NCBI GenBank assembly: GCA_963811165.1
Contig: CAWEQH010000005.1
Location: 1 to 19,549 of the forward strand
Source: an uncultured Nitrospiraceae bacterium
Lineage (GTDB): Bacteria > Nitrospirota > Thermodesulfovibrionia > Thermodesulfovibrionales > UBA6898
Reading direction: 5' to 3'
Length of the DNA stretch: 19,549 bases
A model generated the notes under the pieces. The model ran no database searches. It was not told the origin of the DNA and saw only the letters and a list, made by a program, of their open reading frames with translations. The translations under genes were made by a program, and so were the position numbers. This document shows positions 1 to 19,510 of this stretch, piece after piece. The first letter of the stretch is position 1; the number at the start of each line of letters is the position of its first letter.

Positions 1-2845
1 GCTTATTCGCTTGGCCCTGAAGTCGTCAATCGCCTGCTGAATCAGCTTGGAGAATTTCTCGTAGAAAGCAGGGTCTTCCTCCATTTTTTCGGTGATGGCT
101 TTCTTGGTAGCATGGGCGATGGCGTCGGCCGTGGCACGCCGTCGTCTTCGTCGATAAATGCCCCGTTCTTCCTTGACCATCCCGAACATCCTGTCATCGA
201 AGATATTGACCGGCTCATTGAGCTTGATAACTTCGTTTGCCTCGATATGGGTATCAAGGAGCTTTTTGATTTTCGGCTCATAGTCGCGATAGTCGATTGT
301 CTTCGGCATACCGTAGCTTGACGGCGGCTTTCAGATTATGGAACCGCTTCAGGTCATTCCGGTACTGGGCCATCTTGGCGTCCGGCGTATCCATGATGAA
401 CTGTTCGGTGGAGAGTGCCATCGCAGAGTACTTGCTGTACTCGGCCAGTCGCTGGTAAAACTCCTCTCTCAGCGCGTCATCGCCAAGCAGCAACTCATAG
501 GCCTCTTCGTCATAGTCGGTTCTTCACCTCTTTAAAGAGGTCCCAGAGATCGGAGTAGACCTGCGGCAGCTTGCGCTGCTTCCTAGTGATCGAGGTCAGC
601 GTGCCTTCAAGGTCTGCTTCGTCAAAATCCTCCAGTCCTGCATCGGCGTACATGGTGAGGGCCTTGATCCAAGCTCACCGAGAATACTGGCATAGTCAAC
701 GATATAGCCAAACTCTTTTTCTGCCCAAGGTTTCGTCCTCGTAGAGCCGGTTCACCCTGGCGATCGCCTGGAGCAGGGTATGCTCCTTCAGAGTGCGCAC
801 AGATACATTACCGTATTGCGGGGCGCGTCAAATCCGGTAATGAGCTTATCTACCACGATCAGAATTTCCGGTTCGTCGCCATAGCAGAAACTGATTGATG
901 ATCTGCTTCATGTATTCTTCTTCCGAGCCATAACGCTTCATCATCTTCTTCCAGAACTGGACTAACTTCTTCTCTGTCGGCCCTTCCTCGACCTCTTCAT
1001 AGCCTTCCCGTGTTATCCGGCGGCGATATGATCACCTCGGAAGTGACCCATGCCCAATTCGTTCAGGAATTCATGGTATTTGAGGGCCGACACCTTGTTC
1101 TGTGCGACCAGTTGGGCCTTGTAGGGCGTATCCTGCCAGGTGGAACGATAATGTTCGCTGATATCGAAGGCCCGCATATAAATGACTCTTTCCGCCTTGT
1201 TCAGCATTTCCGCACGGGCATATTTCTTCTTCAAATCAGCCTTCTGTTTGTCGGTAAGCCCCTGGGTATGGCGCTCAAACCAGAGATCGATGGCGTCCTT
1301 GTTCTGCTTCATATCCACATGACGGCCTTCATACAGAAGGGGCACCACCTGCTTGTCTTTCACGGCCTGCTGCATCGAATAGTGGGGCTCGATAAGCCCT
1401 CCGAATTTGATGAAGTTATTCTTCTCTTTCTTCATCAGCGGCGTGCCCGTGAAGCCAAGGTAGCAGGCGTTCGGGAACATCTGCCGCATCCGGGCATGAA
1501 AAGATCCCGAAGTTGGTGCGATGGCTTTCGTCCACCAGCATGAAGATATCGGTGCGATTCATCCTGGAGTATTTCTTTACTTTAAGGGCCTTATCGAACT
1601 TGTGGATCAGGTGGTGACAATGGCAGCCTGCTTTTCCGAAACCAGCTCGAGCAGATCCTGGCCGGTTTTGGCGCGTTGTGGCTCAAGACCGCAGGCGGCA
1701 AAGGTATTGCCGAGCTGTTTGTCGAGGTCGACCCTGTCGGTGACCAGCACGATACGAGGATTGGGGATATCGTGGTCAAGGGCAAGGTTTCTGGCAAGCC
1801 AGATCATGGTGAGGGATTTCCCCGAGCCCTGCGTGTGCCAGATGATGCCGCCTTTGCGCCGTTCGCCTTGCGTGCGTCGAATTGCTTCATCCGTTCCAGG
1901 GCGGACTTGACCACAAAATACTGTTGGTAGCGGGCGATCTTCTTTATGCCGCCATCAAAGATGGTGAACTTGAATGCCAGCTCCAGAAGCCGCTCCGGGC
2001 GGCAGAGGCTGTAGATTGCCTTGTCCTGCTGCGTCACCTCTGCTCGCCCTCAGCCTCCAGGGCATCAAAGAACTTTCGTGCGGCAGCGAAGTCCCCTGAA
2101 AAGAGCCTCTCTTTTCCGCGGGCTTTAAGGATTCTGATTGACGGTGCCGCAACATCCTTTTCCTTGTCCTGCAGTTCCTGCCATACGCTCCAGAATTTCC
2201 TGCCTGTTCCGGCCGTGGCATACATGGCGGCGTTCTTGTTGATGCCCATGACAAGCTGCACATAAGAGAAGAGCTTGGGGATATACTCATCCTGCTGGTT
2301 GCGGATGGACTGGGAAACTGCCTGCTCGAGTCCTATCTTGGGCGACTTGCATTCGATGACCGCAAAGGGAATGCCGTTCACAAAGAGCACAATATCGGGC
2401 CGGGCTGTTTCAGTGCTCCGGGTGCGCTCAACACTGAATTCCGCGGTGACATGAAAAGTGTTATTCTTCCAGTCCTGCCAGTCGATATAGCGCAGGGTGA
2501 AGCTCTTGGAGTCGCCTTCAATGGACTGCTCCAGCGCCGTGCCCAGGGTAAGCAGGTCATAAACGGCTTCATTAGTCTTCTGCAGTCCGTCCCACTTACG
2601 TTCTTCAGCTTCTGGATGGCGGACTGGATGTTTTCCTCACTGAAGAGATATTCCTGGCCTTTGTACTGGATGCGGTTGATGGCCTTGAGCTGGTTGCGCA
2701 GGATCTCTTCCAGCAGCACATTCCCATCTTTCTGCCGCGCAGCCACCGCCTGCTCGGGGGTAAGGTACTTGAAACCAAGGTTGATGAGCTGCTGAAGCGC
2801 CGGGATCTGGGAAAGATACTTTTCGTTAAAGCGGAAGCCCTTCAT
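1..2845 (-). CDS. hsdR: Type I restriction enzyme R subunit (HsdR); multiply frameshifted, 3' end outside the window
   Basis: Stitched frames give MKGFRFNEKYLSQIPALQQL, the nuclease motif RPDIVLFVNGIPFAVIECK, Walker A WHTQGSGKSLTM, the DEAH-like VDESHR (~1520-1535), GFTGTP and ITGFDAP. ATG at 2845 with RBS GAGGTGA. Confidence 0.95.
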
Positions 2846-4038
2846 GAGGTCACCTCTTCGGGTCTTCACCCGCCATTCGCCGGTGAGGAGTTTTTGCATA
2901 AGGCCGCGTTTTTGGCTCTTGAGCAATTCCAGTTTGTTTTCAAGAAGAGATATCTCTTTAAGAGAGGTATTTAAGACATCGCCAATTTTCGCCTGCTCCC
3001 TAGATTTCTGGCAAAGAATATTTTCAAGTTAAGAAAATCCGATTTGTTTAGTACTCGGTTGCTCCCTGCCCCGCCCGGAGATACTATAGCCAAGACTACG
3101 TATAAATCTTTTTTGAACTATTACATGTCGCAGATAATCAGGCAATGCTTTGTTGATATCAACCTACAAATGTCGGAAATCTATGCGAAACAAAACAATC
3201 TTCATCAGCTTGCCAACAAAAAAGCAATGGCGCCCTCCCATGCAAAGTTATATTTACAATAAGATCATCCTGCTTAACCCTGTAAAGAGTATCCATTGCA
3301 ACAGTATCTGGATTTTCAATAAAACGCCGAAATGTGCCTTTGCCGTGACTCCTAATTCCTAAAGCCCAATATGGTTTGTTCGGTTTCGCAACTACCCTCA
3401 AGGTCGGCTTAAGAAAAGTCTTTAGGGACGGCACTTATTTTTCTGTTTAGCAACATATTAGACAAAGCGGCATGCCGTGACATTTGCGCCTCAATCAGCC
3501 TTTCCATTTTTTCGATAGCGATGTTCCATGCAGTGATCAGCTCTACTATCGTCTTCTGAATGTTTAAGGGAGGAACAACTACAGGAAGTGCGCCAACACC
3601 ATCCTGATCAATTGTTGTCATAGTTGTAGTTTTTGCATTCCTCATGAAATATTTTCTAGCAGTATCAGAGCGGCAATATTCTTTCAGGTAGGTAGGCAGC
3701 ACAAGGTCTTGTTTTGGACGCACCCTCATTACATGGCATTCATATATTACATCCTCAGTATCTGAGTCAAAAATATTACAGTGAGCAATGCCTTCCAGTT
3801 TTAGGGACGATCTTGTAAGAAATATATCACCCCGTTTAACAGAGAAGTTATGAAGCTCTTTCGGTGTCACTTCAAGAAGGGTTAGATTATTGACATTAAT
3901 TTTTGATCCAACATAGAGATCGGAAACATTTATTAGGCGATAGCCCTGACCTGCTTTTTTCGGATCGTTAAAAGCTCCGTTTGAAATTCGTGTTTCACAA
4001 AGCTCTTTCAAAAGATATGTTGGTCCGATACTTTTCAT
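2842..4038 (-). CDS. hsdS: Type I RM specificity subunit (HsdS), two target recognition domains; frameshifted
   Basis: TRD1 (VKRGDIFLTR...LPVVVPPLNIQKTIVELITAWN), TRD2 (LGIRSHGKGTF...QDDLIVNIT) and the conserved C-terminus LKSQKRGLMQKLLTGEWRVK. About 1.2 kb, visibly AT-rich. Probable TGA at 2844-2842 overlaps the hsdR ATG (ATGA). Confidence 0.92.
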
Positions 4039-4163
4039 ATATAAACCTCAACATGTGACACCTTGCCGTGATGGGTGAGCACTTCGCGTTCCGCTTCAGT
4101 TGTCACGTTTTCCTTAATAGTTGTCTGAGGGGTGCCGAATTTAACATTTTCACAGTGGATCAT
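4035..4163 (-). pseudogene. 42-aa mini-ORF, probable internally deleted RhuM-family remnant
   Basis: Manual translation: MIHCENVKFGTPQTTIKENVTTEAEREVLTHHGKVSHVEVYI*. EREVLTHHGKVSH resembles the RhuM C-terminal 'ERDILTHAGKISH'-type motif. GGAGG lies upstream. The ATG directly follows the likely abi stop and the TGA overlaps the hsdS ATG. Confidence 0.5.
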
Positions 4164-5074
4164 TCAGCCCCTTGCCTCCGCAATCCAAAAATGGACTCTG
4201 CTCCCAATTCACAGGATATCCCATACTCCCGAGAGATATTTCAGGATACTCATTCTTCAGTGCGGCCAGCCTATTCGACCAGCCGCTTTGAGGAGCTATG
4301 AGGTTCAAAGATATTTCAGGATCGTCAGAATGATGAATATACGGTTGTTTGATAATGCCACCGGCTTGTGCCAATCCGGATATTTCCTTTCGTGCGGCAA
4401 CTTAGGCTTATAGCCGAGCTCACGGTTCCAAGAGGCGACCGTGATGGGCGCAAATATTACGTATTGCATTAAGCGCCCGAAGCCAGGAATGGGGAGCACT
4501 TCATCTGGAATATTGTATTGCTCAGCTACTGCCTGTTTTATATGAGCATCAACTCCGTTGAAGAATGTGAGCATCATACCGAATGTCATTATCTCCGCAG
4601 TCATCCAGAGCGGCAGGTGTTCATGCCTATCGCCATATTTGCTTAAAAAGTGCTTAACGAAAATTTCGTGGCTTTTACGAGTTTCTCAAAGTCGATACAG
4701 TCAGCCATTTTTTCATGTTCTTCTAACGTCAGACGTGGCAGGTTGGTTGCAACAGCATGGCCGAAGGGACCTTTATGATGTACAAAGTGGTATACGGTCT
4801 GCGTCCTGACAGCAACTTCGACTCTTTCAATGGCATCCATTACCGAACTCGCAGGGACGGTCAAATGTATAATGTCGCCAAACTTGTTCGAACGTTGTCC
4901 CGGGAATGAAATGTATCGTCAGAGTTCCGGAAAGGATAAAGATAGCCGCTAAACCGATAATAATTTACAGAGCGGAGACGGTCAATCAGCAGGTTGCGGT
5001 CAGCGACGAGACCTCTGCTGATGAGAAGATCGGCTTGTTGTTCAAAAGGTGAGCGCCTGTTTAGGATATTCCAT
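4164..5074 (-). CDS. abiF: AbiD/AbiF-family (Abi_2) abortive-infection HEPN RNase; frameshifted
   Basis: Stitched frames: MEYPKQALTFEQQADLLISRGL...VNYYRFSGYLYPFR, MDAIERVEVAVRT, LPLWMTAEIMTFG, the HEPN R-x4-H motif IRNICAHHGRL (~4435-4464), and C-terminal MGYPVNWEQSPFW. All are typical of Abi_2 proteins. Confidence 0.9.
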
Positions 5075-5084
5075 CGGCGCCTCT

Positions 5085-5138
5085 AAAATAAAATTCCCCC
5101 GAATGACGCATGCTAAGCAGAGGCGCGGGGATATGCTG
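5085..5138 (-). ncRNA. Structured leader/small RNA upstream of abiF (abiF-motif-like, putative RNA antitoxin)
   Basis: 5'-CAGCAUAUCCCCGCGCCUCUGCUUAGCAUGCGUCAUUCGGGGGAAUUUUAUUUU. It has a CCCCG/CGGGG outer stem, a CGC/GCG stem with a bulge, a UGC-UUA-GCA apical hairpin and a U-rich tail. It lies between a consensus promoter and the abi ATG. Confidence 0.65.
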
Positions 5139-5143
5139 TATTT

Positions 5144-5172
5144 ATTGTATGAGAATGAACAACTGCTGTCAA
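5144..5172 (-). promoter_or_regulatory. Sigma70 promoter for the abiF cassette
   Basis: Minus strand TTGACA (5172-5167), 17-nt spacer, TACAAT (5149-5144), with an A-rich upstream tract. Confidence 0.8.
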
Positions 5173-5184
5173 CAATTTTTTGTT

Positions 5185-6751
5185 TCAAGAAATTATACCC
5201 CGAATCTCCTCGATATATTTGTTCATCTTGTCCCTTACCTTGACCAGTTCCCTCTCGATCCGATCAATCTCCTTCTTTTGGACCGCAGCCACATCTATCT
5301 CCTCTTCTTTCCTCAAAGGTATCAACATATCGCGGAATGTTGAGATTGAAATCGTTCTCCTTTATCTCATCAAACGTCGCGACATGGGCATATTTATCAA
5401 CATCGTTGCGGGCCTTGTAGGTGGCGACAATCTTTTCAATATGCTCTTCAAGCAAAAGGTTTCGGGTCTTGGCCGACTGGTAATCGCGGCTGGCATCAAT
5501 GAAAAGTACATCCCGATGGTCTGCATTTACTCCGCCTTTTTCACGTGAACGGTCGAAGATCAGGATTGCCACTGGTATTGACGTAGTAGGAAATAGATTG
5601 GCAGGAAGCCCGACAACGGCATCAAGCAGATTGTCTTCGATCAGCTTCTGACGAATGCGCCCCTCAGCTCCTCCCCGAAACAGCACCCCATGAGGTACAA
5701 CCACTGCTACCCGTCCTTCTTTTTCAAGAGCCACTTCTACCATATGGCTGATAAAGGCATAGTCACCCTTGCTTTTGGGGGGAACGCCGCGCCAGAAGCG
5801 GTTAAAACGGTCATGTTCAGCTTCTTCTGCGCCCCACTTGTCGAGGGAAAAGGCGGGTTTGGCAACAACGATGTTAAACTTCATTAGACGGTCTTTTTCC
5901 ACCAATGCCGGATTTGTCAGGGCATTGCACCATTCGATGCGGGCGCTGTCCATACCGTGCAGAAACATGTTCATTCGGGCCAGCGCCCATGTGCTTCCAT
6001 TTACCTCCATTCCGAAGAGCGCAAAATCACGGCTGCCTACCTCCTTGGCCGCCTCTATCAGAAGCCCGCCGGAACCGTTCGACGGATCACAAATGTGATC
6101 ACCTGGCTTTGGGCTGTACAAGCTTGGCGAGCAGCTCAGAGACCTTGTGCGGCGTATAAAACTCGCCTGCCTTCTTACCGGCGTCAGATGCGAAGCGCTC
6201 TATGAGATAAATATAAGTGTTGCCAATCACATCCTCTGAAACCCGGCTTGGCCGTAAGTCGAGCTGAGGCTTGTTAAAATCCTCCAAAAGATGCTTCAGT
6301 AACCGATTCCTGTCTTTGGTCTTTCCGAGATTTGCCTCGCTGTTAAAATCGATGTTACGGAACACCCCTTCAAGCTTGGCCTTATTGGCTTCTTCTATTG
6401 CATCCAGAACAATATTGATGAGTTCCCCGACATTAGCCCTTGTTCTTCGTTCGCAGAGGCTGTAAAAATCTGCATGAAACTGCTCTTTTTGGCCGGTGTC
6501 CTTGTCCTCATAATTTACATAGGGCAATGTGAAGCGTTCCCGGTCGAGCTTCCGGCGGATTCGTTCGTCGTCACCACCATATTCTTTCTTATATAAGTCA
6601 TAATGGTCCTGCCACACGTCGGAGATGTATTTCAAAAACAGCATCACAAGGATGTAGTCCTTATACTGGGCAGGGTCCACGGACCCCTGAAGGTGTCACA
6701 AGCTGCCCATGCGATATTATTGATTTCGTCCTGCGATACTTTCGAGGTCAT
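5185..6751 (-). CDS. hsdM: Type I RM N6-adenine methyltransferase (HsdM); frameshifted
   Basis: MTSKVSQDEINNIAWAACDTF, DPAQYKDYILVMLFLKYISD, GKKAGEFYTP, motif I ICDPSNGSGGLL, motif IV read as VAKPAFS (NPPF after removing a +A/-T indel pair), VVVPHGVLFRGG, and NDFNLNIPRYVDTFEE. The stop is at 5185, or at 5193 if there is a further indel. Confidence 0.95.
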
Positions 6752-7337
6752 TTTCTCTTCTCCTTATTGGCCTTGGTTGCACTTAAACATACTACATTTA
6801 TAATAAGGGACCGCTTGTCCTGAAGTTCTGTCATTAGTTTTTTTTCCATCGCCATTAACCTACTCAGCTCTATGATCTTCTTCTGAGATTCTAAGGCAGG
6901 AACTTCAATCTTGAGTCCTTTGAATGCGGACATAGGAACAAGCGGCATATGAGACCCATGCCGGGCGTTGGTATGCAGATATTCTTGTGTCGGTGCCTGG
7001 TTAATGTACCATGCCAGATATTCCGGCAAAACATCTGAATTCCTAATTCTTAGGATGAAAAAATGACTCACGGCGACAGAGTTTTCAATATCCGCCATGA
7101 TCGCTGTGGCCCAGTTCTTGTGCCCCCGGGACAGAAAAAGGACATCGCCCTTGTTTACAGGAAACTGATCAGGCTTATCCAGGTTAACGCGTAAAAGGCC
7201 CTTCTTATTTAGATTACGATTCTCGTCAAAGTCCCGGATCTAATAACCGAATGCGCGCCGTCATCAGAGGGCTCCATTTTTTTGCGGAACTGATATCCCA
7301 TTCGAATATCTGCTATTTCTGTTATTTTCTTTTTCAT
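6748..7337 (-). CDS. Half-size HsdS-like protein (single TRD plus helical tail), one frameshift near 7240
   Basis: MKKKITEIADIRMGYQFRKK...IRDFD...VNKGDVLFLSRG...FFILRIRNSDVLPEYLAWYIN...LKIEVPALESQKKIIEL. Its TGA overlaps the hsdM ATG (ATGA). Confidence 0.8.
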
Positions 7338-10137: not shown

Positions 10138-10175
10138 CTATATATTTGCAAGAACATAAGAAGGAGGACGGGAAG

Positions 10176-10496
10176 ATGAAAGACAAAGGATACGCAAAGA
10201 AACTGGCATACATGGGAGCAGGGTGCGGAGTAGTGCTGTTTGGAGTATTTGGGTTGCTTCCCGGGTCATTCCTTGGCGGGGTGATGGGACTTAATATCGC
10301 AGGGAAGCTGCTTGGAGTGCCTTTGGCCTCGGGTATCCTTTCGAGGCTGATAGTTGCGGCATCGATGGTAATAGGGGTGATGGTCTCTGGGATCATGTTC
10401 ATCACTGCCAGTTCGATTGCGGGCTGGCTTATAGGGACGGTGCTGGATGCGATCACGGCAGAGAAGAAAGAAATGGCTGAAGTAGGGCATAAATAA
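10176..10496 (+). CDS. Small Gly-rich membrane protein of unknown function (106 aa)
   Basis: RBS AAGGAGG at 10161-10167. Hydrophobic segments with GxxxG repeats. Paralogous to the next gene. Confidence 0.85.
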   Translation: MKDKGYAKKLAYMGAGCGVVLFGVFGLLPGSFLGGVMGLNIAGKLLGVPLASGILSRLIVAASMVIGVMVSGIMFITASSIAGWLIGTVLDAITAEKKEMAEVGHK

Positions 10497-10528
10497 TATA
10501 CCAAATAAAAATCAAAGGAGGAAGTGTC

Positions 10529-10864
10529 ATGAAAGAGGAAAGAAAAAGGACGATGAAGGTAGGGACGAAGATCGGTGCGGCGTTGGGTGCGATAGTATTT
10601 CTGGTATTTGGGATAGTGCCGGGGTTTTATTTCGGCAGTTACGGGGCGCTGGTATTGATGAGCAGGCTTGCAGGCGGACCGGTAGAGCCCACGACAATCG
10701 TAAGAATGATCACCGTGGTGGGCGTTGCCCTGGGTATCTTCTGCGGCGCAGCCGCCAGCATCGTGCTGGGTTCGGTATTCGGCACAGCCCTCGCCTGGAT
10801 AGTCGATGTGATCGGCAGCCTCGGAAAGGTAAAAGAAACCGAGGAAGTGAAGGCACACAATTAG
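10529..10864 (+). CDS. Small Gly-rich membrane protein of unknown function (111 aa)
   Basis: RBS AAGGAGG just upstream. GAALGAIVFLVFGIVPGFYFGS aligns with GAGCGVVLFGVFGLLPGSFLGG of the previous gene. Confidence 0.85.
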   Translation: MKEERKRTMKVGTKIGAALGAIVFLVFGIVPGFYFGSYGALVLMSRLAGGPVEPTTIVRMITVVGVALGIFCGAAASIVLGSVFGTALAWIVDVIGSLGKVKETEEVKAHN

Positions 10865-11655: not shown

Positions 11656-12294
11656 TCAAAACTTTTCCCGCAGTCCTGACGGTCTCCTGTCTTTGAAGTG
11701 CTTGAGCCTGCAGTAAGCCTCTCTCTCCCTCTCTCCGATATGCTGTGAAATCGCCTTTATCTGTGCTCTCAATCCCGGCAATACCCTTTCTTCAAGGACT
11801 CTCATCCTCCTCGTCGTCTTCAGTATTTCGTCACCAAGTCTTTTTAATTTTGCTTCGAAGACTGCCATGTCAAGCATAGATTCGAGGATCTTTTCGAACT
11901 GGAGCGTGCATTCTTCAAGATACGGAGTTGTCGATAGATAGTCATACCCCCTCTCATCAGGGTCTCGCACGGGGCGATCATGGCTGGTGACTTCCTTATA
12001 CTTCAGTCCCCATATGCTTTTCTCTATTATGTCGATCCCAAAATTCCTGGATGTTGCGAAAGTAATGGATTCGATCGTCTCTCTTCCTTCGTGTCCCATA
12101 CTTAAGGCAAGTTTTGCAAGAGCCTTGCCGTATCGTTCCCTGATTTCGTCCCTTGACCTGAGGAACGGCCTTGTGGCAGCCAGGAATTCCCGTGTCAATG
12201 CCTGCTTCCGGGCCTTCAGTATTCGTATGCTGTTGAAGACAGAAAGCGTCCTTTCCCTTATGAGGAGGAGGTTTGTCCTTGTGGGATGTATCAT
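11656..12294 (-). CDS. atpD: V/A-type ATPase subunit D
   Basis: PTRTNLL, ILKARKQAL, EILKTTRRMRVLEERVLP, EREREAYCRLK; last gene of the operon. Confidence 0.93.
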   Translation of the reverse strand: MIHPTRTNLLLIRERTLSVFNSIRILKARKQALTREFLAATRPFLRSRDEIRERYGKALAKLALSMGHEGRETIESITFATSRNFGIDIIEKSIWGLKYKEVTSHDRPVRDPDERGYDYLSTTPYLEECTLQFEKILESMLDMAVFEAKLKRLGDEILKTTRRMRVLEERVLPGLRAQIKAISQHIGEREREAYCRLKHFKDRRPSGLREKF

Positions 12295-13619
12295 ATGATC
12301 GCCAGCGAGAATTTCTTCATGAGGCGGATGCCTGTGTCGAGAGTCTCTTCGATCGTTCTCCGGCCTCCGCCCTGATTTACAAACTCCTTCTCGAAGGAGT
12401 CCGCGAAATCGAGCATCTTCCTGTCTTTCTCCGTCATGCCGTCCCTTCCGACTATCGCCTCAAGTCTTCTCATGTCCCTTCCGCTTGAATAATATTTATA
12501 GAGGTTGTCTGCGATCTTCCTGTGGTCTTCTCTTGTACGGCCTTTGCCTATGCCTTTCTGCATCAGCCTTGAAAGACTGGGGAGAACATCGACGGGAGGG
12601 AATATATTCAGGCGGTGAAGTTCCCTGCTCAGGACTATTTGTCCTTCGGTGATATATCCGGTAAGGTCGGCAACCGGATGGGTGATGTCATCTTCGGGCA
12701 TGGTCACGACCGGCAGCATGGTCACAGAACCTTCGATATTCTTTACCCGTCCAGCCCTTTCATAAAGTGAGGCAAGGTCAGAGTACATGTAGCCTGGATA
12801 TCCCCTTCTTCCGGGCAGTTCCTCTCTTGCCGTGGATATCTCCCTGAGGGCATCGCAGTAATTCGTCATGTCTGTGATAATCACCAGCACGTCCATCCCT
12901 TTGTCAAAGGCGAGATGTTCTGCGACCGTCAACGCGAACCGCGGCGCAAGGAGCCTCTCCATAACCGGCTCCCCGGCACCGTTTATAAATGCGACAAAGC
13001 CTGTCTTGACATCCTCGAGCACTCCCATGTAATAGGAGTATTCGTAGAATGTAAGACCAAGCGCTGCGAATACGACAACAAACCTGCCTCCTTTCGCAGA
13101 GAGCCGTGAATGCCTCAGCACACCCGCGACTAGTTCCTTTGACGGAAGTCCGGCGCAGGAGAATACAGGGAGCTTCTGCCCCTTTACAAGCGTGTTCAGG
13201 CCGTCTATCACCGAAAAGCCGGTCGCTATGAATTCCTCAGGCCTTGCGCGGGCCGACGGGTTCATGGGCATGCCGGAGATTGGCGCCCATTTCTCAGGGA
13301 TGAACATCGGCAAGCCGTCAACAGGACTGAAGGAGCCATTAAAGATCCTTCCTATGATGTCCGCAGAAAGGGGGGCCTTCCTCACGGAGTCGGTAAACGC
13401 AACGGATGTTTTCCCCGTGTCGAGGCCTCTTGTCTCTCCAAAGACCTCGATCAGTACAGTATCACCATCTATCTCCAGCACCTCTGCGTCCATCTTTCCC
13501 CCGTCCGGGGATATTACCCTGACGACTTCTCCTATCCGGGCACTGAAGACCTTCTTTACAAAAATGAGAGGGCCCGCTATAGCAGATATGGTGCGGTAAG
13601 TGTGTTCTGAAAGTCTCAT
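12291..13619 (-). CDS. atpB: V/A-type ATPase subunit B
   Basis: YRTISAIAGPL, GQKLPVFS, TDMTNYCDALREIS, PGRRGYPGYMYSDLASLYERAG, DLTGYITEGQI, LPSLSRLM. Confidence 0.97.
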   Translation of the reverse strand: MRLSEHTYRTISAIAGPLIFVKKVFSARIGEVVRVISPDGGKMDAEVLEIDGDTVLIEVFGETRGLDTGKTSVAFTDSVRKAPLSADIIGRIFNGSFSPVDGLPMFIPEKWAPISGMPMNPSARARPEEFIATGFSVIDGLNTLVKGQKLPVFSCAGLPSKELVAGVLRHSRLSAKGGRFVVVFAALGLTFYEYSYYMGVLEDVKTGFVAFINGAGEPVMERLLAPRFALTVAEHLAFDKGMDVLVIITDMTNYCDALREISTAREELPGRRGYPGYMYSDLASLYERAGRVKNIEGSVTMLPVVTMPEDDITHPVADLTGYITEGQIVLSRELHRLNIFPPVDVLPSLSRLMQKGIGKGRTREDHRKIADNLYKYYSSGRDMRRLEAIVGRDGMTEKDRKMLDFADSFEKEFVNQGGGRRTIEETLDTGIRLMKKFSLAII

Positions 13620-15245
13620 GCCTTGTCTTCCGTCTTAGACGCCTCTTCGAGAGAAACACCCTCCGAAATTTTATTGAGCGCGTAGTCATAGTATTCGAAT
13701 ATGTTTTTGATTAGAGCGCAGGTGTTGGCAGGAGGAGAAAATGCGTCCGCGGCATATGCGTTTTGCGATAAGAACTCCATCCGTATTTTTTCCGCCACAA
13801 GCATGAGGAGCCTGTCGGAGTCCTGCAGGCCTTCGGCGCCTACAATCTCGGCCACTTCCCTTAACGTCGCCTCCTTCTGAAGAACCTCCCTGCAGCGCAC
13901 CTGCAGACTTCTCCCATTCAGGAGAGACCATCTCCCCGTAATGACTTCCCATTTCAGAGGAGTAGAGTGAATAACTCTGGAACCAGTTTATGGCGGGGAA
14001 ATGCCTGCGGTGGGCCAGGGACGTATCCAGCATAAGGAAGGCGCCGGTCGTCCTAAGGCACGCCTGAGTGACCGGCTCCGTAAAGTCGCCTCCCGGAGGA
14101 GACACGGAGAGGACCATGGTAAGGGACCCAATCTTCCCGCCTAGTGTCTCCACGACGCCCGCTCTTTCTAAAAAACCCGAAAGCCTTGACGTAAGATATG
14201 TCGGGTACCCCTCTTCTCCGGGCATCTCCTCAAGCGATGACGATATCTCCCTCAGGGCCTCGGCCCATCTGGAAAGGCTGTCGGCAAGAAAGAGCACATG
14301 ATATCCCATGTCCCTGTAATACTCTGCCATGGTGACCGCGGTATATATGGAGGCCTCTCTTGCCACAACAGGCATATTGGAGGTATTAACCACAAGTATC
14401 GTCCTTTCCATGAGACGTCTACCCGTCCATGGGTCCGAAAGCTCCGCGAACTCCTCGATCATCTCTGCCATCTCGTTGCCGCGCTCCCCGCATCCGACAT
14501 AGACGACGATATCAACGTCAGCGAACTTGGCCAGTGACTGCTCCAGGACCGTCTTGCCTGTGCCGAACCCTCCCGGGAAGACTGCGGTCCCTCCCTTTGC
14601 GACGGGGAAGAGAAAATCTATGCTCCTCTGGCCGGTCACAAGAGGCACTGTCGGGGAGAATTTTTTCCGGTACGGCCTGGGACTCCTTACCGGCCATTCA
14701 TGCCATCCGTAAAACATTCTGCCGTCTTCATATTCACCGAGCGGCGCATCAAGGCTGAACCCTCCTGAGATGATCCTCGATATCCGCCCCGTGTCGGCGG
14801 GACCGCAGGAAATATAGTGTCTGAAGGCCCCCTCTTCCACCGTCCCAAGGATGTCCCCCAGGGCGGTCTCGTCTCCGGTTCTTGCCTGCTGAGAAAAGTC
14901 CCACCTCTTTTCAAAATTCAGGCCATATATCTCCTTACCCCCGGTAATGAAAGGACCCATCTCCTCTTGTAACTTCCTAAGCGGCCTCTGGAGGCCATCG
15001 AACATCTCAGAAAGAAGGCCGGGCCCGAGCTTTACGGTGAGCGGGAGACCCATGCCCTTAACAGGCTCGCCGACCGCCAGGCCACTGGTGTTTTCGTATA
15101 CCTGGACGACGGCACCGTCATGTTGCAGTCTCACAACCTCTCCGGTGAGCATAGAATGTCCGACATAGACGCGCTCATAGAGCTTCAGTCCAGTGAGGTC
15201 AACGCTCACGGTGGGCCCGGAAATGCCGCGTATCCTGCCGGTCAT
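13616..15245 (-). CDS. atpA: V/A-type ATPase catalytic subunit A; one +1 frameshift near 13907-13910 (~542 aa when corrected)
   Basis: Walker A GGFGTGKT, YVGCGERGNEM, AREASIYT, EEMPGEEGYP, SPPGGDFTEPVTQ, HFPAINW. The C-terminus continues in ORF 13616..13900 (EVLQKEATLREVAEIVG). Confidence 0.96.
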
Positions 15246-15562
15246 AACTGCAGCCTCACATGGTAGCCTATCGCCCTTCTTATGAGGCGTGACGCGTAGT
15301 CTTCCACTTCTGTCGCCGGTCTTATCGGCGAAGGAAGCACAAGCAGGATTCCGCTCCAGTGTTTCTCCATGTCCCTCATTTTCTCCGCGCTCATCCCCCT
15401 TATTGTCCTTTCGTCAATGATGATGAGTCGGATATCGGGCCAGGCCATTATTTTTTGCATGGTCTCCTCTGCGTTTTCAGGTTCGGCGGTATATTGCGGA
15501 ATGCCTGCAAGGCCGAACCCGTATTCTGCGTCCATGGGGGTGATAAATGCGACTTTATTCAA
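15242..15562 (-). CDS. atpF: V/A-type ATPase subunit F
   Basis: KVAFIT...GFGLAGI...IRLIIIDE...LIRRAIGY. Probable TTG start at 15562 overlaps the subunit C stop, with GGAG upstream. Confidence 0.88.
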   Translation of the reverse strand: MNKVAFITPMDAEYGFGLAGIPQYTAEPENAEETMQKIMAWPDIRLIIIDERTIRGMSAEKMRDMEKHWSGILLVLPSPIRPATEVEDYASRLIRRAIGYHVRLQL

Positions 15563-16515
15563 TAGACCAGCTCCATCATGACCATCTCCCTTTCCATGTC
15601 CCGGCCGTAGTAAAGGACACTCAGGTCCATCACTTCCAGAGAACTCCTCCATAGATAATCAAGTACGGGCCCTATGTCCGACGGGTCCCTTCCCGCCCTC
15701 TTCAGGAAAACGGTCATCCTCCTGTAGAGGGCGTTTTCCACGTTCAATTGGCCGGACCCCGGTTTTTTTATCCCTGCCAGTCTGCCGACCTCGGCGATGT
15801 CCTTTCTTTCGATGGTCCTGAGAAACACGGTTTCGCTGATGCTGCCGTAAGGGATGAATGAAGGGGCCGTTTTTGGTCCCAGCCTTAGGCACTTATACAG
15901 AGAGATGATATTGCGCGAATCGATGATGCGTACAAAAAAATTCTTTATGAGCGGATGAAGCCGCCTCCTTACGATCGTCGCCAGATACCTGACGGTCAAT
16001 TCACGCTCAAACCCCTTTATCCCTTCCCTGTCGCAGACAGCTGCAACCCCGGCGAATGAATCGGAGATTGCCAAAAAGCGTTTTTCAATTACCTTGACGG
16101 TTGCCGGGACGTCCCGGCCTTCCCTGAGGACACTTCGTATATCTTCCGACAGGAGACTTGTCAGCAGGGTATCCCCGGTCTTCTCCACCTTCCCCCCATG
16201 GATGTTCCTGAGGCAGATGAAGATCGTCCTGAGTTCGCTATAGATGAAAAATGGCCTGAAAATCTCCCGCAGTTCGCTGTTCATTCTGATGTAGACCCAT
16301 CGGTATTCTCTTGCAAGGTCCCTCCAAACCCCCTCAGGCGAGCGTTCAGTCACAAAGCCCCTGTATCGGGAAGAGACAAGATATTCAAAGGGGGCCGCGC
16401 TAAAGACAAGAGCCGGCCAATCGGATATGAGTCCCGCACGCTTCCCTCTTATCCTGGAAACCAGATATTCCCCGGGATATCCTCTGTCTTCAAACGGCTC
16501 CAGTAGTTTTTTCAT
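15559..16515 (-). CDS. atpC: V/A-type ATPase subunit C (d-like), divergent
   Basis: 318 aa. N-terminal YLVSRIRGKRAGL, RIIDSRNI, and C-terminal IGPVLDYLWR. Positioned between E and F. Confidence 0.78.
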   Translation of the reverse strand: MKKLLEPFEDRGYPGEYLVSRIRGKRAGLISDWPALVFSAAPFEYLVSSRYRGFVTERSPEGVWRDLAREYRWVYIRMNSELREIFRPFFIYSELRTIFICLRNIHGGKVEKTGDTLLTSLLSEDIRSVLREGRDVPATVKVIEKRFLAISDSFAGVAAVCDREGIKGFERELTVRYLATIVRRRLHPLIKNFFVRIIDSRNIISLYKCLRLGPKTAPSFIPYGSISETVFLRTIERKDIAEVGRLAGIKKPGSGQLNVENALYRRMTVFLKRAGRDPSDIGPVLDYLWRSSLEVMDLSVLYYGRDMEREMVMMELVY

Positions 16516-17074
16516 CCAGAACCTTCCGGTATATGTCGTCCATCAGCGCAGGGAGCATCTGCTGCCATGCCCCTTGAAGTCTTTTTTCAAAGGTATTGGA
16601 GACCCTCACCCTGCCTTCCTCTGCCTCCGCTTCCATGCCCCCGGTGATGTCCGTGTCAGCTACTATAGTTGCATTGGGGAAGCGCTTCCTTGCCAGATCA
16701 GAATCGTCCGGGTTCACTTTGACTGTATGCCACGCTGCATGAGGGAGTTCAAGGGCGAGTTTACTGAAAATATTCTCATATCCCTTCTCCCGCAGAAGGC
16801 GCAGGGAAGAGACCGAAAGAGAATAAAGACGGGCAGAGAGCCTGTCATCAGAGATGAGTCTGATCTTCTTTGCCCTCCTGTCAGCCTCCAGGAGCAGCCT
16901 TACCCGTTCTTCTTCTGAAAAATGGCCCGCGATATCTTCAAGGCGGAGGACCTCAAGTCTGAGAGCGACCCCCGCCCTTATTCCTCCGGCTTCTTCCTCC
17001 GTCTCCTTCCAGAGCTTGCGGACCTTTTCCTCTGCCTCTTTTCTGAGGGACCTTATAAGTTCCTCGCATCCCAT
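16490..17074 (-). CDS. atpE: V/A-type ATPase subunit E
   Basis: Charged helical N-terminus and C-terminal ITGGMEAEAEEGRVRVSNTFEKRL; positioned after K. Confidence 0.88.
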   Translation of the reverse strand: MGCEELIRSLRKEAEEKVRKLWKETEEEAGGIRAGVALRLEVLRLEDIAGHFSEEERVRLLLEADRRAKKIRLISDDRLSARLYSLSVSSLRLLREKGYENIFSKLALELPHAAWHTVKVNPDDSDLARKRFPNATIVADTDITGGMEAEAEEGRVRVSNTFEKRLQGAWQQMLPALMDDIYRKVLDEKTTGAV

Positions 17075-17075
17075 C

Positions 17076-17294
17076 TTATTTCACGGTGAAGAGTATCATG
17101 GCAGCAACTACGAACCCGAGGATCACCATCGTCTCCGGAATGGCGACGAGTATGACTATCGTACCACTCAGCTCAGGCTTTTCTGCAAGTGTTCCCGCGC
17201 CGGCGGCCCCGATTTTTGATTGGGCCCAAGCTGTCGCTATCGCGGTAAGGCCTATCGAGAGTGCCGCTGCAAATGCGATCGGTATTCTTTCCAT
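17076..17294 (-). CDS. atpK: V/A-type ATPase proteolipid subunit K (c), single hairpin
   Basis: 72 aa, two TM helices, AWAQSKIGAAGAG and the ion-binding VAIPETMVILG. Confidence 0.95.
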   Translation of the reverse strand: MERIPIAFAAALSIGLTAIATAWAQSKIGAAGAGTLAEKPELSGTIVILVAIPETMVILGFVVAAMILFTVK

Positions 17295-17307
17295 CTCTCT
17301 CTCCTTT

Positions 17308-19191
17308 TCATCTTTCTTTTTTTAAAGGTTCAAACTTTCTTCCGCCGTGTTCGAGGAATTTACTGAAAAACTCGACATAGTGAAGCCTGAGGGAATGTAT
17401 GGTCGGTGAGAAGACCCCGAGAATGATATTCAGAAGGTGAAGCAGCCCTGCCACAAACACGCCGGTCACGACATCTCCTGTCAGACCTCCGAGGCTGTTT
17501 GCGACAAAGGCAAGGAGGACCGAGGTGAGCCCTATCGCCATGATTCTTACATAGGAGATGATATTGCCGATGCTCTTAAGCAGCTCAAGCGGCGCAAGAA
17601 GTCCTCCCGCAAAGAGGAGCAGAGGGGTAAGGAACAGTATCGCAATAATTACCGGGCGAATAAACAGGGAAGGGAAAAATCCGAAGAATGACGCGACCAC
17701 GGCCATGATGCAGAGAATTACTGCGATACTGACGAGCCTGTAGACGGCATCTTTCTTCTTTCCCCTCCTGAATGATGTGACAGCCCCGAGAGAGAGGCCG
17801 AGAAACACATGGACCACACCCACGGTCACCGCGAAACAGATCATGGGGACTATGGCTGTGCGCCGTTCGATACAGAGGGGCTCCATGCCGAAGAGCCTAT
17901 GGGGGAGGTCTCCGAAGAACTCGCCGTAAAGTATGCCGAAAAAAATCGAATAGAACGATGAGATAAAGAGTATCTTTGCGGCATCTCTCACCGTCCGTCC
18001 TTTCCCCGGCATTTTCATCAGGGCAAGAGACGTGATCCCGAGGACAAGGCCGTATCCTGCGTCACCGAGTATCATCCCGAAAAATACCGGGAAGAATATT
18101 CCGATAAAAGGCGTCGGGTCATATGACGCATAAGCGGGCAAGGGCAGAAGTCTTGTGAACAGTTCGAAGGGTTTGAAGTAGGGCGGGTTTCTCAGGACAA
18201 TCGGCACGCGGCTAAGGTCCTCCTCACACATCTCCTTTTCTTCCAGTACTACCTTGCTTCCAAACGACTCATCCAGACTTCTCCGGAGTCTCTGCAGGTC
18301 CTTCGACGGCATCCAGCCGTTTACAAAAAAACACATCCGCGTCTCAAAAGCCCAGGCCGTGGCTGTAATGAGGGACAACCTGTCCTGTGCCCATTCCCTG
18401 ACCCTGTAGTAGATCGGCAGCCACTGCCTGGACAGCCGCTCCATGTCTGAATGTATGTGCCGGACCTCTTCGGACACTTTCTCCGTCCGGTTTCTGACAT
18501 AGGCGACTTTTTCAGGGAAGGAAAGCCCGTTGAAAGAGGCCGGTAGACTCAGCTCCGGGACGTGTTCGTCACTGAGAGACTTCTTGACCTTGTCGGTGAT
18601 CTCCTTTTCCACGGCTATCAGACCGACCAGTGTCCCGTCTTCCGCGGTCCTGGTCGTGAGTTCGAATTTCCAGTCCGTGGTGCGCGAGAGCGCGTCCCTC
18701 AGGCTGTCCAGCATATCGGGTTCATGTATGGTCAGACCGATAAAATCGAGGTCGGGTGTCTCCTTCGCGCTGCCGACAAGTGAGGTGAGGGCGTTGAGGA
18801 ATATCGTGTAATGTCCGAGGTCGGCCTGCTCCTTATGCAGCGCATCGAGCCTGATGTGTAAATCTCGCAAGCCCGATATATGCCGGTCTACGGTCGCTGC
18901 GATAGAGTCTATGACCGAGCCTGGTTCGATGTAACTCTTTCTCACCTCAACCTTTGGCAGCAGGGAGATGATCTCGTCTATCTTCAGCAGGAACTCCCCG
19001 AGAAAAAGTTTTTCGAGAACGGTCTTTTTGTCCGGGTCAAAAGTCCGTATGTGCTTCTGCAGCCCTCCATCCACAAAACCTACCGCCGCCGGTTCGACAT
19101 GGAATATCCCCAACTCGCGAACAAGTTCCAAGGTGTCTTGCAACAGCGCCTTCGGTCCTACGATCTCGACCTTTGACATCCTGGCTATCAT
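17308..19191 (-). CDS. atpI: V/A-type ATPase subunit I (a)
   Basis: MSKVEIVG, YDPTPF, FFGMILGDAGYG, the essential Arg in NIISYVRIMAIGL, and HSLRLHYVEFFSKF. Confidence 0.96.
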   Translation of the reverse strand: MIARMSKVEIVGPKALLQDTLELVRELGIFHVEPAAVGFVDGGLQKHIRTFDPDKKTVLEKLFLGEFLLKIDEIISLLPKVEVRKSYIEPGSVIDSIAATVDRHISGLRDLHIRLDALHKEQADLGHYTIFLNALTSLVGSAKETPDLDFIGLTIHEPDMLDSLRDALSRTTDWKFELTTRTAEDGTLVGLIAVEKEITDKVKKSLSDEHVPELSLPASFNGLSFPEKVAYVRNRTEKVSEEVRHIHSDMERLSRQWLPIYYRVREWAQDRLSLITATAWAFETRMCFFVNGWMPSKDLQRLRRSLDESFGSKVVLEEKEMCEEDLSRVPIVLRNPPYFKPFELFTRLLPLPAYASYDPTPFIGIFFPVFFGMILGDAGYGLVLGITSLALMKMPGKGRTVRDAAKILFISSFYSIFFGILYGEFFGDLPHRLFGMEPLCIERRTAIVPMICFAVTVGVVHVFLGLSLGAVTSFRRGKKKDAVYRLVSIAVILCIMAVVASFFGFFPSLFIRPVIIAILFLTPLLLFAGGLLAPLELLKSIGNIISYVRIMAIGLTSVLLAFVANSLGGLTGDVVTGVFVAGLLHLLNIILGVFSPTIHSLRLHYVEFFSKFLEHGGRKFEPLKKER

Positions 19192-19195
19192 GCCT

Positions 19196-19510
19196 TCATT
19201 CCGGAAGGATCATGTTGAGTCTTCGTATAATGATCCTCCCGAGGGTTTCGTCACTGAGGGCCTGAAATCGCTCTGACTTGTCTTGCGCATCCTGAATGAT
19301 CTTTCCGGCCCTTGCTGCGGCCTCTGCCTTCGCCTGCTCTGCAGACCTTCTGAGTGTCTCTCTGGTCTGATCCACTTTTCTTGCAAAGTCTTCTTCTGCC
19401 TCTTTCTGTATACCTTCAAGCCACTCCCGGGCCTTGCTTTTCTCGGTTTCGAGACATGCCTGAATCTCCTTTTCTGCGGAGATCACCTTGGCCAATGCAT
19501 CGTCCTCCAT
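19196..19510 (-). CDS. V/A-type ATPase peripheral stalk subunit G/H
   Basis: 104-aa E/K/A-rich coiled coil (LAKVISAEKE...) immediately upstream of subunit I. Confidence 0.75.
   Translation of the reverse strand: MEDDALAKVISAEKEIQACLETEKSKAREWLEGIQKEAEEDFARKVDQTRETLRRSAEQAKAEAAARAGKIIQDAQDKSERFQALSDETLGRIIIRRLNMILPE

Follow-up and report, generated by a model that had tools for sequence, protein, structure and literature searches.

A predicted AbiF toxin cassette with an abiF-family RNA inside a type I restriction operon, and related RNAs without the toxin in phages

The best described relatives of the cassette reported here are the AbiF systems of C. difficile and PbAbiF. According to the accessible part of a preprint on C. 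difficile (10.1101/2025.04.15.648962), the AbiF RNA represses in cis, neutralises the toxin in trans and binds the protein, and review passages (PMC12737573, PMC13064643, PMC12165695) ascribe the same type III behaviour, together with a link to Cas13, to PbAbiF. The RNA is described in these excerpts as binding the toxin dimer and blocking its active site; most transcripts end after the RNA, and the free toxin cuts RNA and arrests growth (10.1101/2025.04.15.648962; PMC12737573, PMC13064643). PDB entry 8VZ6 is, according to one review passage, the structure of PbAbiF with its RNA. An earlier reading of the present DNA from the letters alone (the sequence-only reading) had described AbiF as an RNA-held toxin related to Cas13, in agreement with this published type III system.

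The sections of the C. difficile preprint at hand do not discuss a restriction context. Such a context was recorded by Anantharaman et al. 2013 (PMC3710099), whose Table 1 gives Abi2/AbiF/AbiD as ‘embedded in R-M operons’ and whose text suggests a backup role like that of PrrC for genes placed in this way; both ideas put forward by the sequence-only reading, embedding and PrrC-style backup, were thus already in print. Family and context there are the same as in our locus, and the RNA is unmentioned in the parts of that paper available. PrrC-EcoprrI and Ronin are also comparable, in that a toxic effector gene is tied to type I hsd genes. However, the portions of the literature at hand describe PrrC as carrying an ABC-ATPase sensor domain and being held by the restriction complex (PMC3710099, 10.1101/2023.04.06.535777), and ronA as always linked to hsdMS (10.1101/2023.04.06.535777), whereas the AbiF described below lacks a domain of this sort and is tied to no particular partner.

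The window, that is, the whole stretch of DNA analysed, comprises 19,549 bases and is the entire contig C5 of genome G000. Its features around the cassette are as follows.

1..2845, minus strand: hsdR, restriction subunit; at least five frame segments, continuing past the contig end
2858..4038, minus strand: hsdS, specificity subunit (Pfam Methylase_S); at least three frames
4035..4163, minus strand: frame of 42 codons lying between abiF and hsdS; may be a remnant of a cargo gene of the RhuM family (weak)
4164..5074, minus strand: abiF (Abi_2, HEPN RNase) gene of about 300 codons; ATG at 5074, likely stop at 4166..4164
4441..4461, minus strand: HEPN catalytic motif RNICAHH
about 5085..5137, minus strand: putative abiF-motif RNA (Rfam RF03085 family, below the cut-off), located with model R1; predicted antitoxin and attenuator
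5144..5172, minus strand: sigma70-type promoter TTGACA-17-TACAAT (−35 at 5172..5167, −10 at 5149..5144)
5185..6748 (ends approximate), minus strand: hsdM, type I methyltransferase (Pfam N6_Mtase, HsdM_N); three frameshifts, no in-frame stops
6748..7337, minus strand: short hsdS-like gene before hsdM; open frame 7098..6748, upper end placed by DNA similarity

On the minus strand the order is short hsdS-like gene, hsdM, AbiF stretch, hsdS and hsdR, with frameshifts in every one. Because hsdM, hsdS and hsdR share one strand, the locus qualifies as a type I restriction-modification operon (all three genes are frameshifted and hsdR is incomplete at the contig end). The short hsdS-like gene has about 195 codons in relatives, and genomes G489 and G436 have the identical gene order. 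The 42-codon frame begins directly behind the stop codon of abiF and shares 4 nt with the start of hsdS. It bears a weak resemblance to the C-terminal part of RhuM (9 of 13 residues at E 1e-4; 9 of 22 at E 0.003 with a 400-nt subject), and a Pfam search with it gave no match. What the window shares with PbAbiF/AbiFr (8VZ6) and C. difficile AbiF/RCd22 is an Abi_2 protein, the R-x4-H motif and the order promoter, abiF RNA, gene; it differs from the published systems in that the cassette lies in a restriction operon and not in a lysis module. Elsewhere in the window, a V-type ATPase operon spans 11,656-19,510; its A subunit gene (13616-15245, minus strand, annotated by sequence reading) is interrupted by a frameshift at about 13,700-13,900. 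At 10146-10864 on the plus strand lie two similar glycine-rich small membrane proteins in tandem (116 and 111 aa), for which no Pfam family reaches its cut-off. Genome G000 also has another type I set of hsdM, hsdS and hsdR and a further pair of methylase and helicase genes (C4 at about 111-120 kb; C1 at about 33-39 kb).

The promoter between hsdM and hsdS matches the consensus at 11 of 12 positions, as the sequence-only reading had noticed. It is the best of three sites in 3500-6000, where shuffled sequences yield 3.9 sites at a looser cut of 9/12. Its position is conserved among homologues: a promoter-like site (at least 8/12) occurs in the 55 nt preceding the RNA in 105 of 140 homologous loci, compared with 19 of 140 control stretches, and the distance from the end of the −10 box to the first stem is 12-13 nt in 85 of the 105 homologues with a site and 12 nt in the window. 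Transcription is predicted to start near 5137.

Four collinear pieces of the abiF stretch match Pfam Abi_2 (PF07751), and one of them alone exceeds the cut-off. The R-x4-H motif proposed earlier is intact and aligns with RN.C.HH of 8VZ6; R204, N205, A208, H209 and H210 are invariant among 64 aligned relatives. The closest intact relative, P0002, is 93.4% identical to the window AbiF over 286 codons, scores 180 bits against Pfam Abi_2, matches PADLOC AbiD (E 3e-75) and aligns over residues 3-295 with 8VZ6 (E 5e-46). We regard the AbiF fold as settled by the 8VZ6 match. In Pfam this relative shows a single domain and lacks an extra sensor domain. Two other loci have tandem Abi_2 gene pairs (L527:1550-3046 and L110:873-2880); in L527 the first gene has a stop and the second is open.

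The sequence-only reading acknowledged the broken frame of abiF only by calling the gene “frame-corrected”; the Abi_2 match stands, but the frame is not open. Compared with residues 1-294 of P0002, it has eight single-base frameshifts (near 5047, 4902, 4855, 4844, 4689, 4495, 4431 and 4309), a probable ninth near 4188, and no in-frame stops. Six of the eight adjoin runs of at least three bases (background 33%). hsdM has three similar breaks and the first 560 residues of hsdR have five, again with no stop in either. Open-frame coverage drops to 0 within the first 5 kb of the contig, and the error rate climbs toward that end. Because stops are absent, base runs lie nearby and the same pattern is seen in hsdM and hsdR, the frameshifts are likely to be assembly errors. 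The competing view, in which the whole island is a decaying, inactive cluster of pseudogenes, draws on the density of eight or nine frameshifts in a 0.9-kb gene and on the lost coverage over the first 5 kb of a contig whose ATPase genes, at 11-19 kb, are mostly open. We consider it unlikely: abiF, hsdM and the 560 aligned hsdR residues are free of in-frame stops, protein identity is 93%, the breaks mostly sit beside base runs, the ATPase A gene is split too, and the rise in error rate is toward one end of a 19.5-kb contig. Two DNA sequencing runs yielded only 151-nt pieces from relatives (other genomes, not G000), one of which lacks the extra base at 5048, and a DNA search of 60 relatives gave no match.

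The window hairpin occupies 5131..5095, and its U-rich tail reaches 5085. The putative RNA consists of an outer stem (5131-5127 with 5100-5095), an inner stem of three pairs, a conserved CUCU bulge, a short variable third hairpin and the U-rich tail. Folded alone it is no more stable than shuffled sequences (z = +0.48), and a terminator scan of the window did not call it. The Rfam scan that the sequence-only reading had proposed for this region gave no direct match: RF03085 is absent from scans of the window even at E up to 10, the 37-bit cut-off not being reached, and two snoRNA matches (E 1.7 and 4.1) were set aside as chance. An RF03085 search across the genome, which contained no positive control, also gave no match.

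We therefore judge the hairpin to be real from comparison with homologues, and not from its own stability or from Rfam. Relatives were taken as the best-scoring 80 loci each from genomes (590 confirmed matches), metagenomes (576) and viral contigs (135), 240 in all. A script found a matching RNA element upstream of the gene in 193 of the 233 loci with sufficient flank, and when 20 close and 20 viral loci were scored, four and two, respectively, passed the RF03085 cut-off, in line with the earlier statement that structured abiF RNAs precede abiF genes. For covariation, 100 elements were chosen out of 136 distinct ones, with typical lengths favoured. In this set, 96.0% of 1362 cells are paired and 13 of 15 pairs show two-sided changes, and none of 500 shuffles was as high; slid-structure controls gave 30-47% pairing, a comparison that favours the structure, since it was drawn from the same sequences. 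The covarying hairpin upstream of homologues, whose absence would have counted against the sequence-only reading, is thus present. A model built on the 100 homologues with the window excluded (R1) matches the window at 5136..5086 with 42.3 bits (E 7e-12), which is its sole match in the genome, and recovers 47 of 53 held-out loci (some of them near copies of training rows). At least five T follow within 8 nt of the outer stem in 141 of 145 relatives. With the consensus fold and the conserved GCCUCU core before the abiF gene, supported by covariation, the window element is, as judged from sequence comparison, a sub-threshold member of the Rfam abiF family (RF03085).

The two stems are the same as those of RF03085. 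The third hairpin, which lies in a loop that Rfam draws unpaired, shows two-sided changes in four of its five pairs; the model extended by this hairpin detects abiF RNAs missed by Rfam. RCd22 of C. difficile is described in the accessible preprint text as having two motif copies and a separate terminator hairpin (10.1101/2025.04.15.648962), whereas the window has one copy, with the U tail directly after the outer stem. Allochromatium palmeri carries two abiF RNA copies about 120 nt apart before one abiF gene (L071:5716-5782 and 5904-5963). A more distant Abi_2 gene in G008 (L004:1243-2367) is preceded by a different hairpin, to which model R1 gives no match; leaders of a similarly divergent kind before the genes of L236-L240 and L191/L196 suggest further RNA subfamilies. 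Plasmid searches returned 445 records with Abi proteins and 10 records with RNA-like matches; matches H31-H38 represent an abiF-like RNA on Legionella plasmids.

Within the window, a single promoter is followed by the RNA and then the toxin gene, which is the type III order. The three parts, their conserved spacing and the covarying RNA fold are accompanied by a slot that holds other cargo or none in relatives. The reading that we favour, with good though not full confidence, is that the cassette is a self-contained AbiF unit, predicted to be a type III toxin-antitoxin system, which sits in the operon as an interchangeable guest adding an independent layer and not as a dedicated guard. By analogy with the published systems, the outer stem and U tail would stop most transcripts and leave an excess of an antitoxin of about 50 nt, and read-through would give a little toxin mRNA continuing into hsdS and hsdR. 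If a phage shut off transcription in its host, the RNA would run out and the toxin would be released; restriction and AbiF would therefore act as independent layers that move as a unit. Possession of the toxin may, in addition, hinder loss of the island. Where the toxin gene itself is lost, the promoter and RNA would stay behind and serve as the leader of whichever cargo gene comes next.

The sequence-only reading had described a composite of restriction and toxin, in which AbiF backs up or guards restriction. Both are indeed found at one locus, but the guard or backup role receives little support from the contexts of relatives. We surveyed 160 genome and metagenome loci, of which 69 have 3 kb on both sides. 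Restriction genes were counted as type I, type III, ISP and what we take to be a DISARM-like helicase. They flank the cassette on both sides in 23 of the 69 well-flanked loci, on one side in 10 and on neither in 36, the last being an over-count because type II, IIG and BREX genes were not among the queries. The junctions in 38 loci flanked on both sides are hsdM|hsdS (12), mod|res (11), hsdS|hsdR (6) and others (9), so that five kinds of junction harbour the cassette, in type I and type III operons that are unrelated to one another; the labels hsdS|hsdS (3) and hsdM|hsdM (1) probably reflect wrongly labelled fragments. Cassette and restriction genes point the same way in 69 loci and opposite ways in 3. 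In 25 of the 38 flanked loci, the restriction gene that follows begins no more than 55 nt from the matched end. As the location of one third of the well-flanked loci inside operons, the co-orientation and the tight spacing exceed what random landing would give, some selection for pairing AbiF with restriction is likely.

The pairing is nevertheless with no particular system, and AbiF shows no fixed linkage to one kind of hsd complex. On a quick tree of 69 of the 160 rows (one-sided, short-flank and broken rows were left out), the no-restriction label changes 18 times, 10 of these forced by well-supported branches; it is slightly clustered (shuffled mean of 22.9 changes, 9 of 500 as low). Sister proteins are split between type I operons, type III operons and loci with no such operon (L051/L068, L047/L036, L152/L135, L161/L162). 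The RNA was found by script in 37 of 38 operon loci and 31 of 34 without restriction genes, and model R1 recovered the four misses. Loci in restriction operons (n = 37) and those with none (n = 31) are alike in promoter score and U tail (p = 0.99 and 0.81), and the idea that operon-embedded cassettes have weaker leaders was rejected. In the reverse survey, which drew 22 related hsdM loci from 300 genomes, AbiF was found in none within 0.5-1.4 kb downstream of hsdM. hsdS follows hsdM directly in three related loci at 85-91% identity, and in others the slot contains RhuM, YhcG, Fic, Bro-N or CBASS-like genes. The hsdM-hsdS slot is interchangeable, and the AbiF cassette is one guest among several.

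A functional coupling without contact has also to be weighed, in which AbiF arrests the cell, restriction destroys the phage DNA and the cell recovers, the leader setting the dose of the downstream hsdS/hsdR or res. Consistent with it, the available text of one preprint reports that restriction rescues cells from Cas13 dormancy (10.1101/2022.07.05.498905), and AbiF is presented in the excerpts seen as a bacteriostatic relative of Cas13 (10.1101/2025.04.15.648962; reviews). The cassette lies after a methylase and before a restriction gene in at least 29 of the 38 flanked loci, but methylase-first is the usual gene order, so that any internal guest would sit there. The leader is retained before other cargo in three genomes (below); its features, however, are equal inside and outside operons. 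We consider coupling improbable, at about the same level as decay of the island. A dedicated guard of the PrrC or Ronin kind, in which the restriction complex holds or senses AbiF and anti-restriction proteins of phages free it, is the least probable of these alternatives: the embedding is frequent, co-oriented and tightly spaced, PMC3710099 makes a general proposal of this type for HEPN genes in restriction operons in the part available, and PrrC, Ronin and EcoR22I are precedents in the accessible text of 10.1101/2023.04.06.535777, but type I, type III and operon-free contexts are scattered over the tree, unlike the linkage of ronA, AbiF follows none of the 22 related hsdM genes, and this single-domain protein keeps its own RNA inhibitor in every context. 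Set against the backup idea of PMC3710099, our counts favour a guest with its own RNA inhibitor, and not inhibition by restriction subunits. The locus thus supplies a further AbiF cassette, in a setting already on record, plus counts that argue against a guard role; the main lead came from following the RNA, namely phages that carry the antitoxin RNA alone.

The leader also occurs without abiF in bacteria. Two of the 22 related hsdM loci (G489 and G436) have the promoter and abiF RNA but no abiF. In G489 (L273:9373-9588), where HsdM is 89% identical, the leader precedes rhuM, followed by patatin and nucleotide cyclase genes; its element is 86.6% identical to that of the window over 67 nt, with one extra C in the 5′ arm. 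In G436 (L274:3214-3332) the promoter and RNA lead yhcG (DUF1016), and in a third case, G398 (L519:194-307), they precede a gene paired with DUF5131. Searches for Abi_2 gave no match in G489 (99% complete) or G436 (94%), where positive controls matched, nor in G398. The simplest reading of these three cases is that the toxin was lost and the leader retained. ‘RhuM’ matches over the RNA region in ten loci were rejected as artefacts of frames that cross the RNA. In G489, the patatin gene and a DncV-like cyclase with an AGS_C domain form a CBASS-like pair (L273:5750-8351), nested behind the orphan abiF RNA in a type I restriction operon close to that of the window.

When IMG/VR was searched with a strict RNA pattern that ignores the protein, at least 120 stretches matched, 80 of them with flanks. 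Removal of nine duplicates and three shortened loci left 68 distinct loci, and an AbiF gene follows the RNA in 4 of these and is absent in 64. No Abi_2 match was found in 49 toxin-less viral records searched whole (12 of them at least 90% complete), in which search a positive control matched. The next genes in toxin-less loci include those for endolysin, portal, terminase, scaffold, HNH and ssDNA-binding proteins. The fold is kept: a position that the pattern leaves unconstrained pairs with its partner in 59 of 67 cases, compared with a shuffled mean of 30.6 (0 of 5000 as high), related phages not being independent. A promoter-like site precedes only 11 of 65 viral copies, so most phage copies would be cut from, or end, longer transcripts. 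Among cellular matches found pattern-first with slightly looser patterns, AbiF is at the locus in 6 of 7; these came from 2 of 401 and 5 of 251 genomes. A looser viral pattern was excluded from the counts, model matches being present in only about 30 of its 80 loci. A weak match in G501 was dropped, and a model search of 150 genomes, with 38 candidates scored per genome, gives no frequency.

Cultured carriers without AbiF are Aeromonas phage PZL-Ah8, Salicola phage CGphi29, Acinetobacter phage Acj61 and Mycobacterium phage Thibault. In PZL-Ah8, which is T7-like, the RNA lies between the portal and scaffold genes; Acj61 is T4-like. A blastn search returned 49 phage records, duplicates included, 36 of them mycobacteriophages; the four carriers just named were the ones checked. 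Prior sightings exist: an accessible passage of PMC9964418 reports that cyanophage S-CREM1 carries an abiF RNA and that Rfam includes three members from phages, giving no function.

We propose, as about an even call, that the abiF RNA moves freely: toxin-less copies in phages unrelated to one another, among them strictly lytic phages of the T7-like and T4-like kinds, would be decoys that silence the host AbiF RNase, a widespread natural RNA anti-defence against an ancestor of Cas13, while bacteria that lose abiF would keep the promoter and RNA as a leader. The pseudo-ToxI of phage PhiTE, a phage RNA neutralising a type III toxin in the account available (PMC3594212), is a precedent. A phage RNA acting against AbiF is partly in print, since passages of PMC13064643 report, citing a 2025 Cell paper, that the sk1 cos hairpin inhibits AbiF; it is said there to be unlike the AbiF RNA. 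The phage copies described here differ from pseudo-ToxI and sk1 in being true abiF-family RNAs (up to 59.8 bits with Rfam), natural and spread across unrelated phages. Literature listings yielded no report of abiF RNAs that lack the toxin and act in counter-defence; toxin-less copies may already be described in the 2025 Cell paper (PubMed 39970912) or in the supplement of PMC5737381, where the abiF motif is defined. Alternatively, phages may have borrowed the RNA to terminate or process transcripts, or it may be bound by another protein. If the decoy proposal is true, it would define an RNA anti-defence class invisible to protein-based searches, explain why anti-phage activity of AbiF is sometimes difficult to demonstrate, and predict phages that escape AbiD/F systems.

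The toxin-less phage loci are L399-L477, L333 and L520-L523. The abiF RNA adjoins tRNA genes in L400, L439, L441 and L522 and elsewhere often lies in late-gene regions. Tandem copies are present in L428 and L464 and, by eye, also in L409 and L333.
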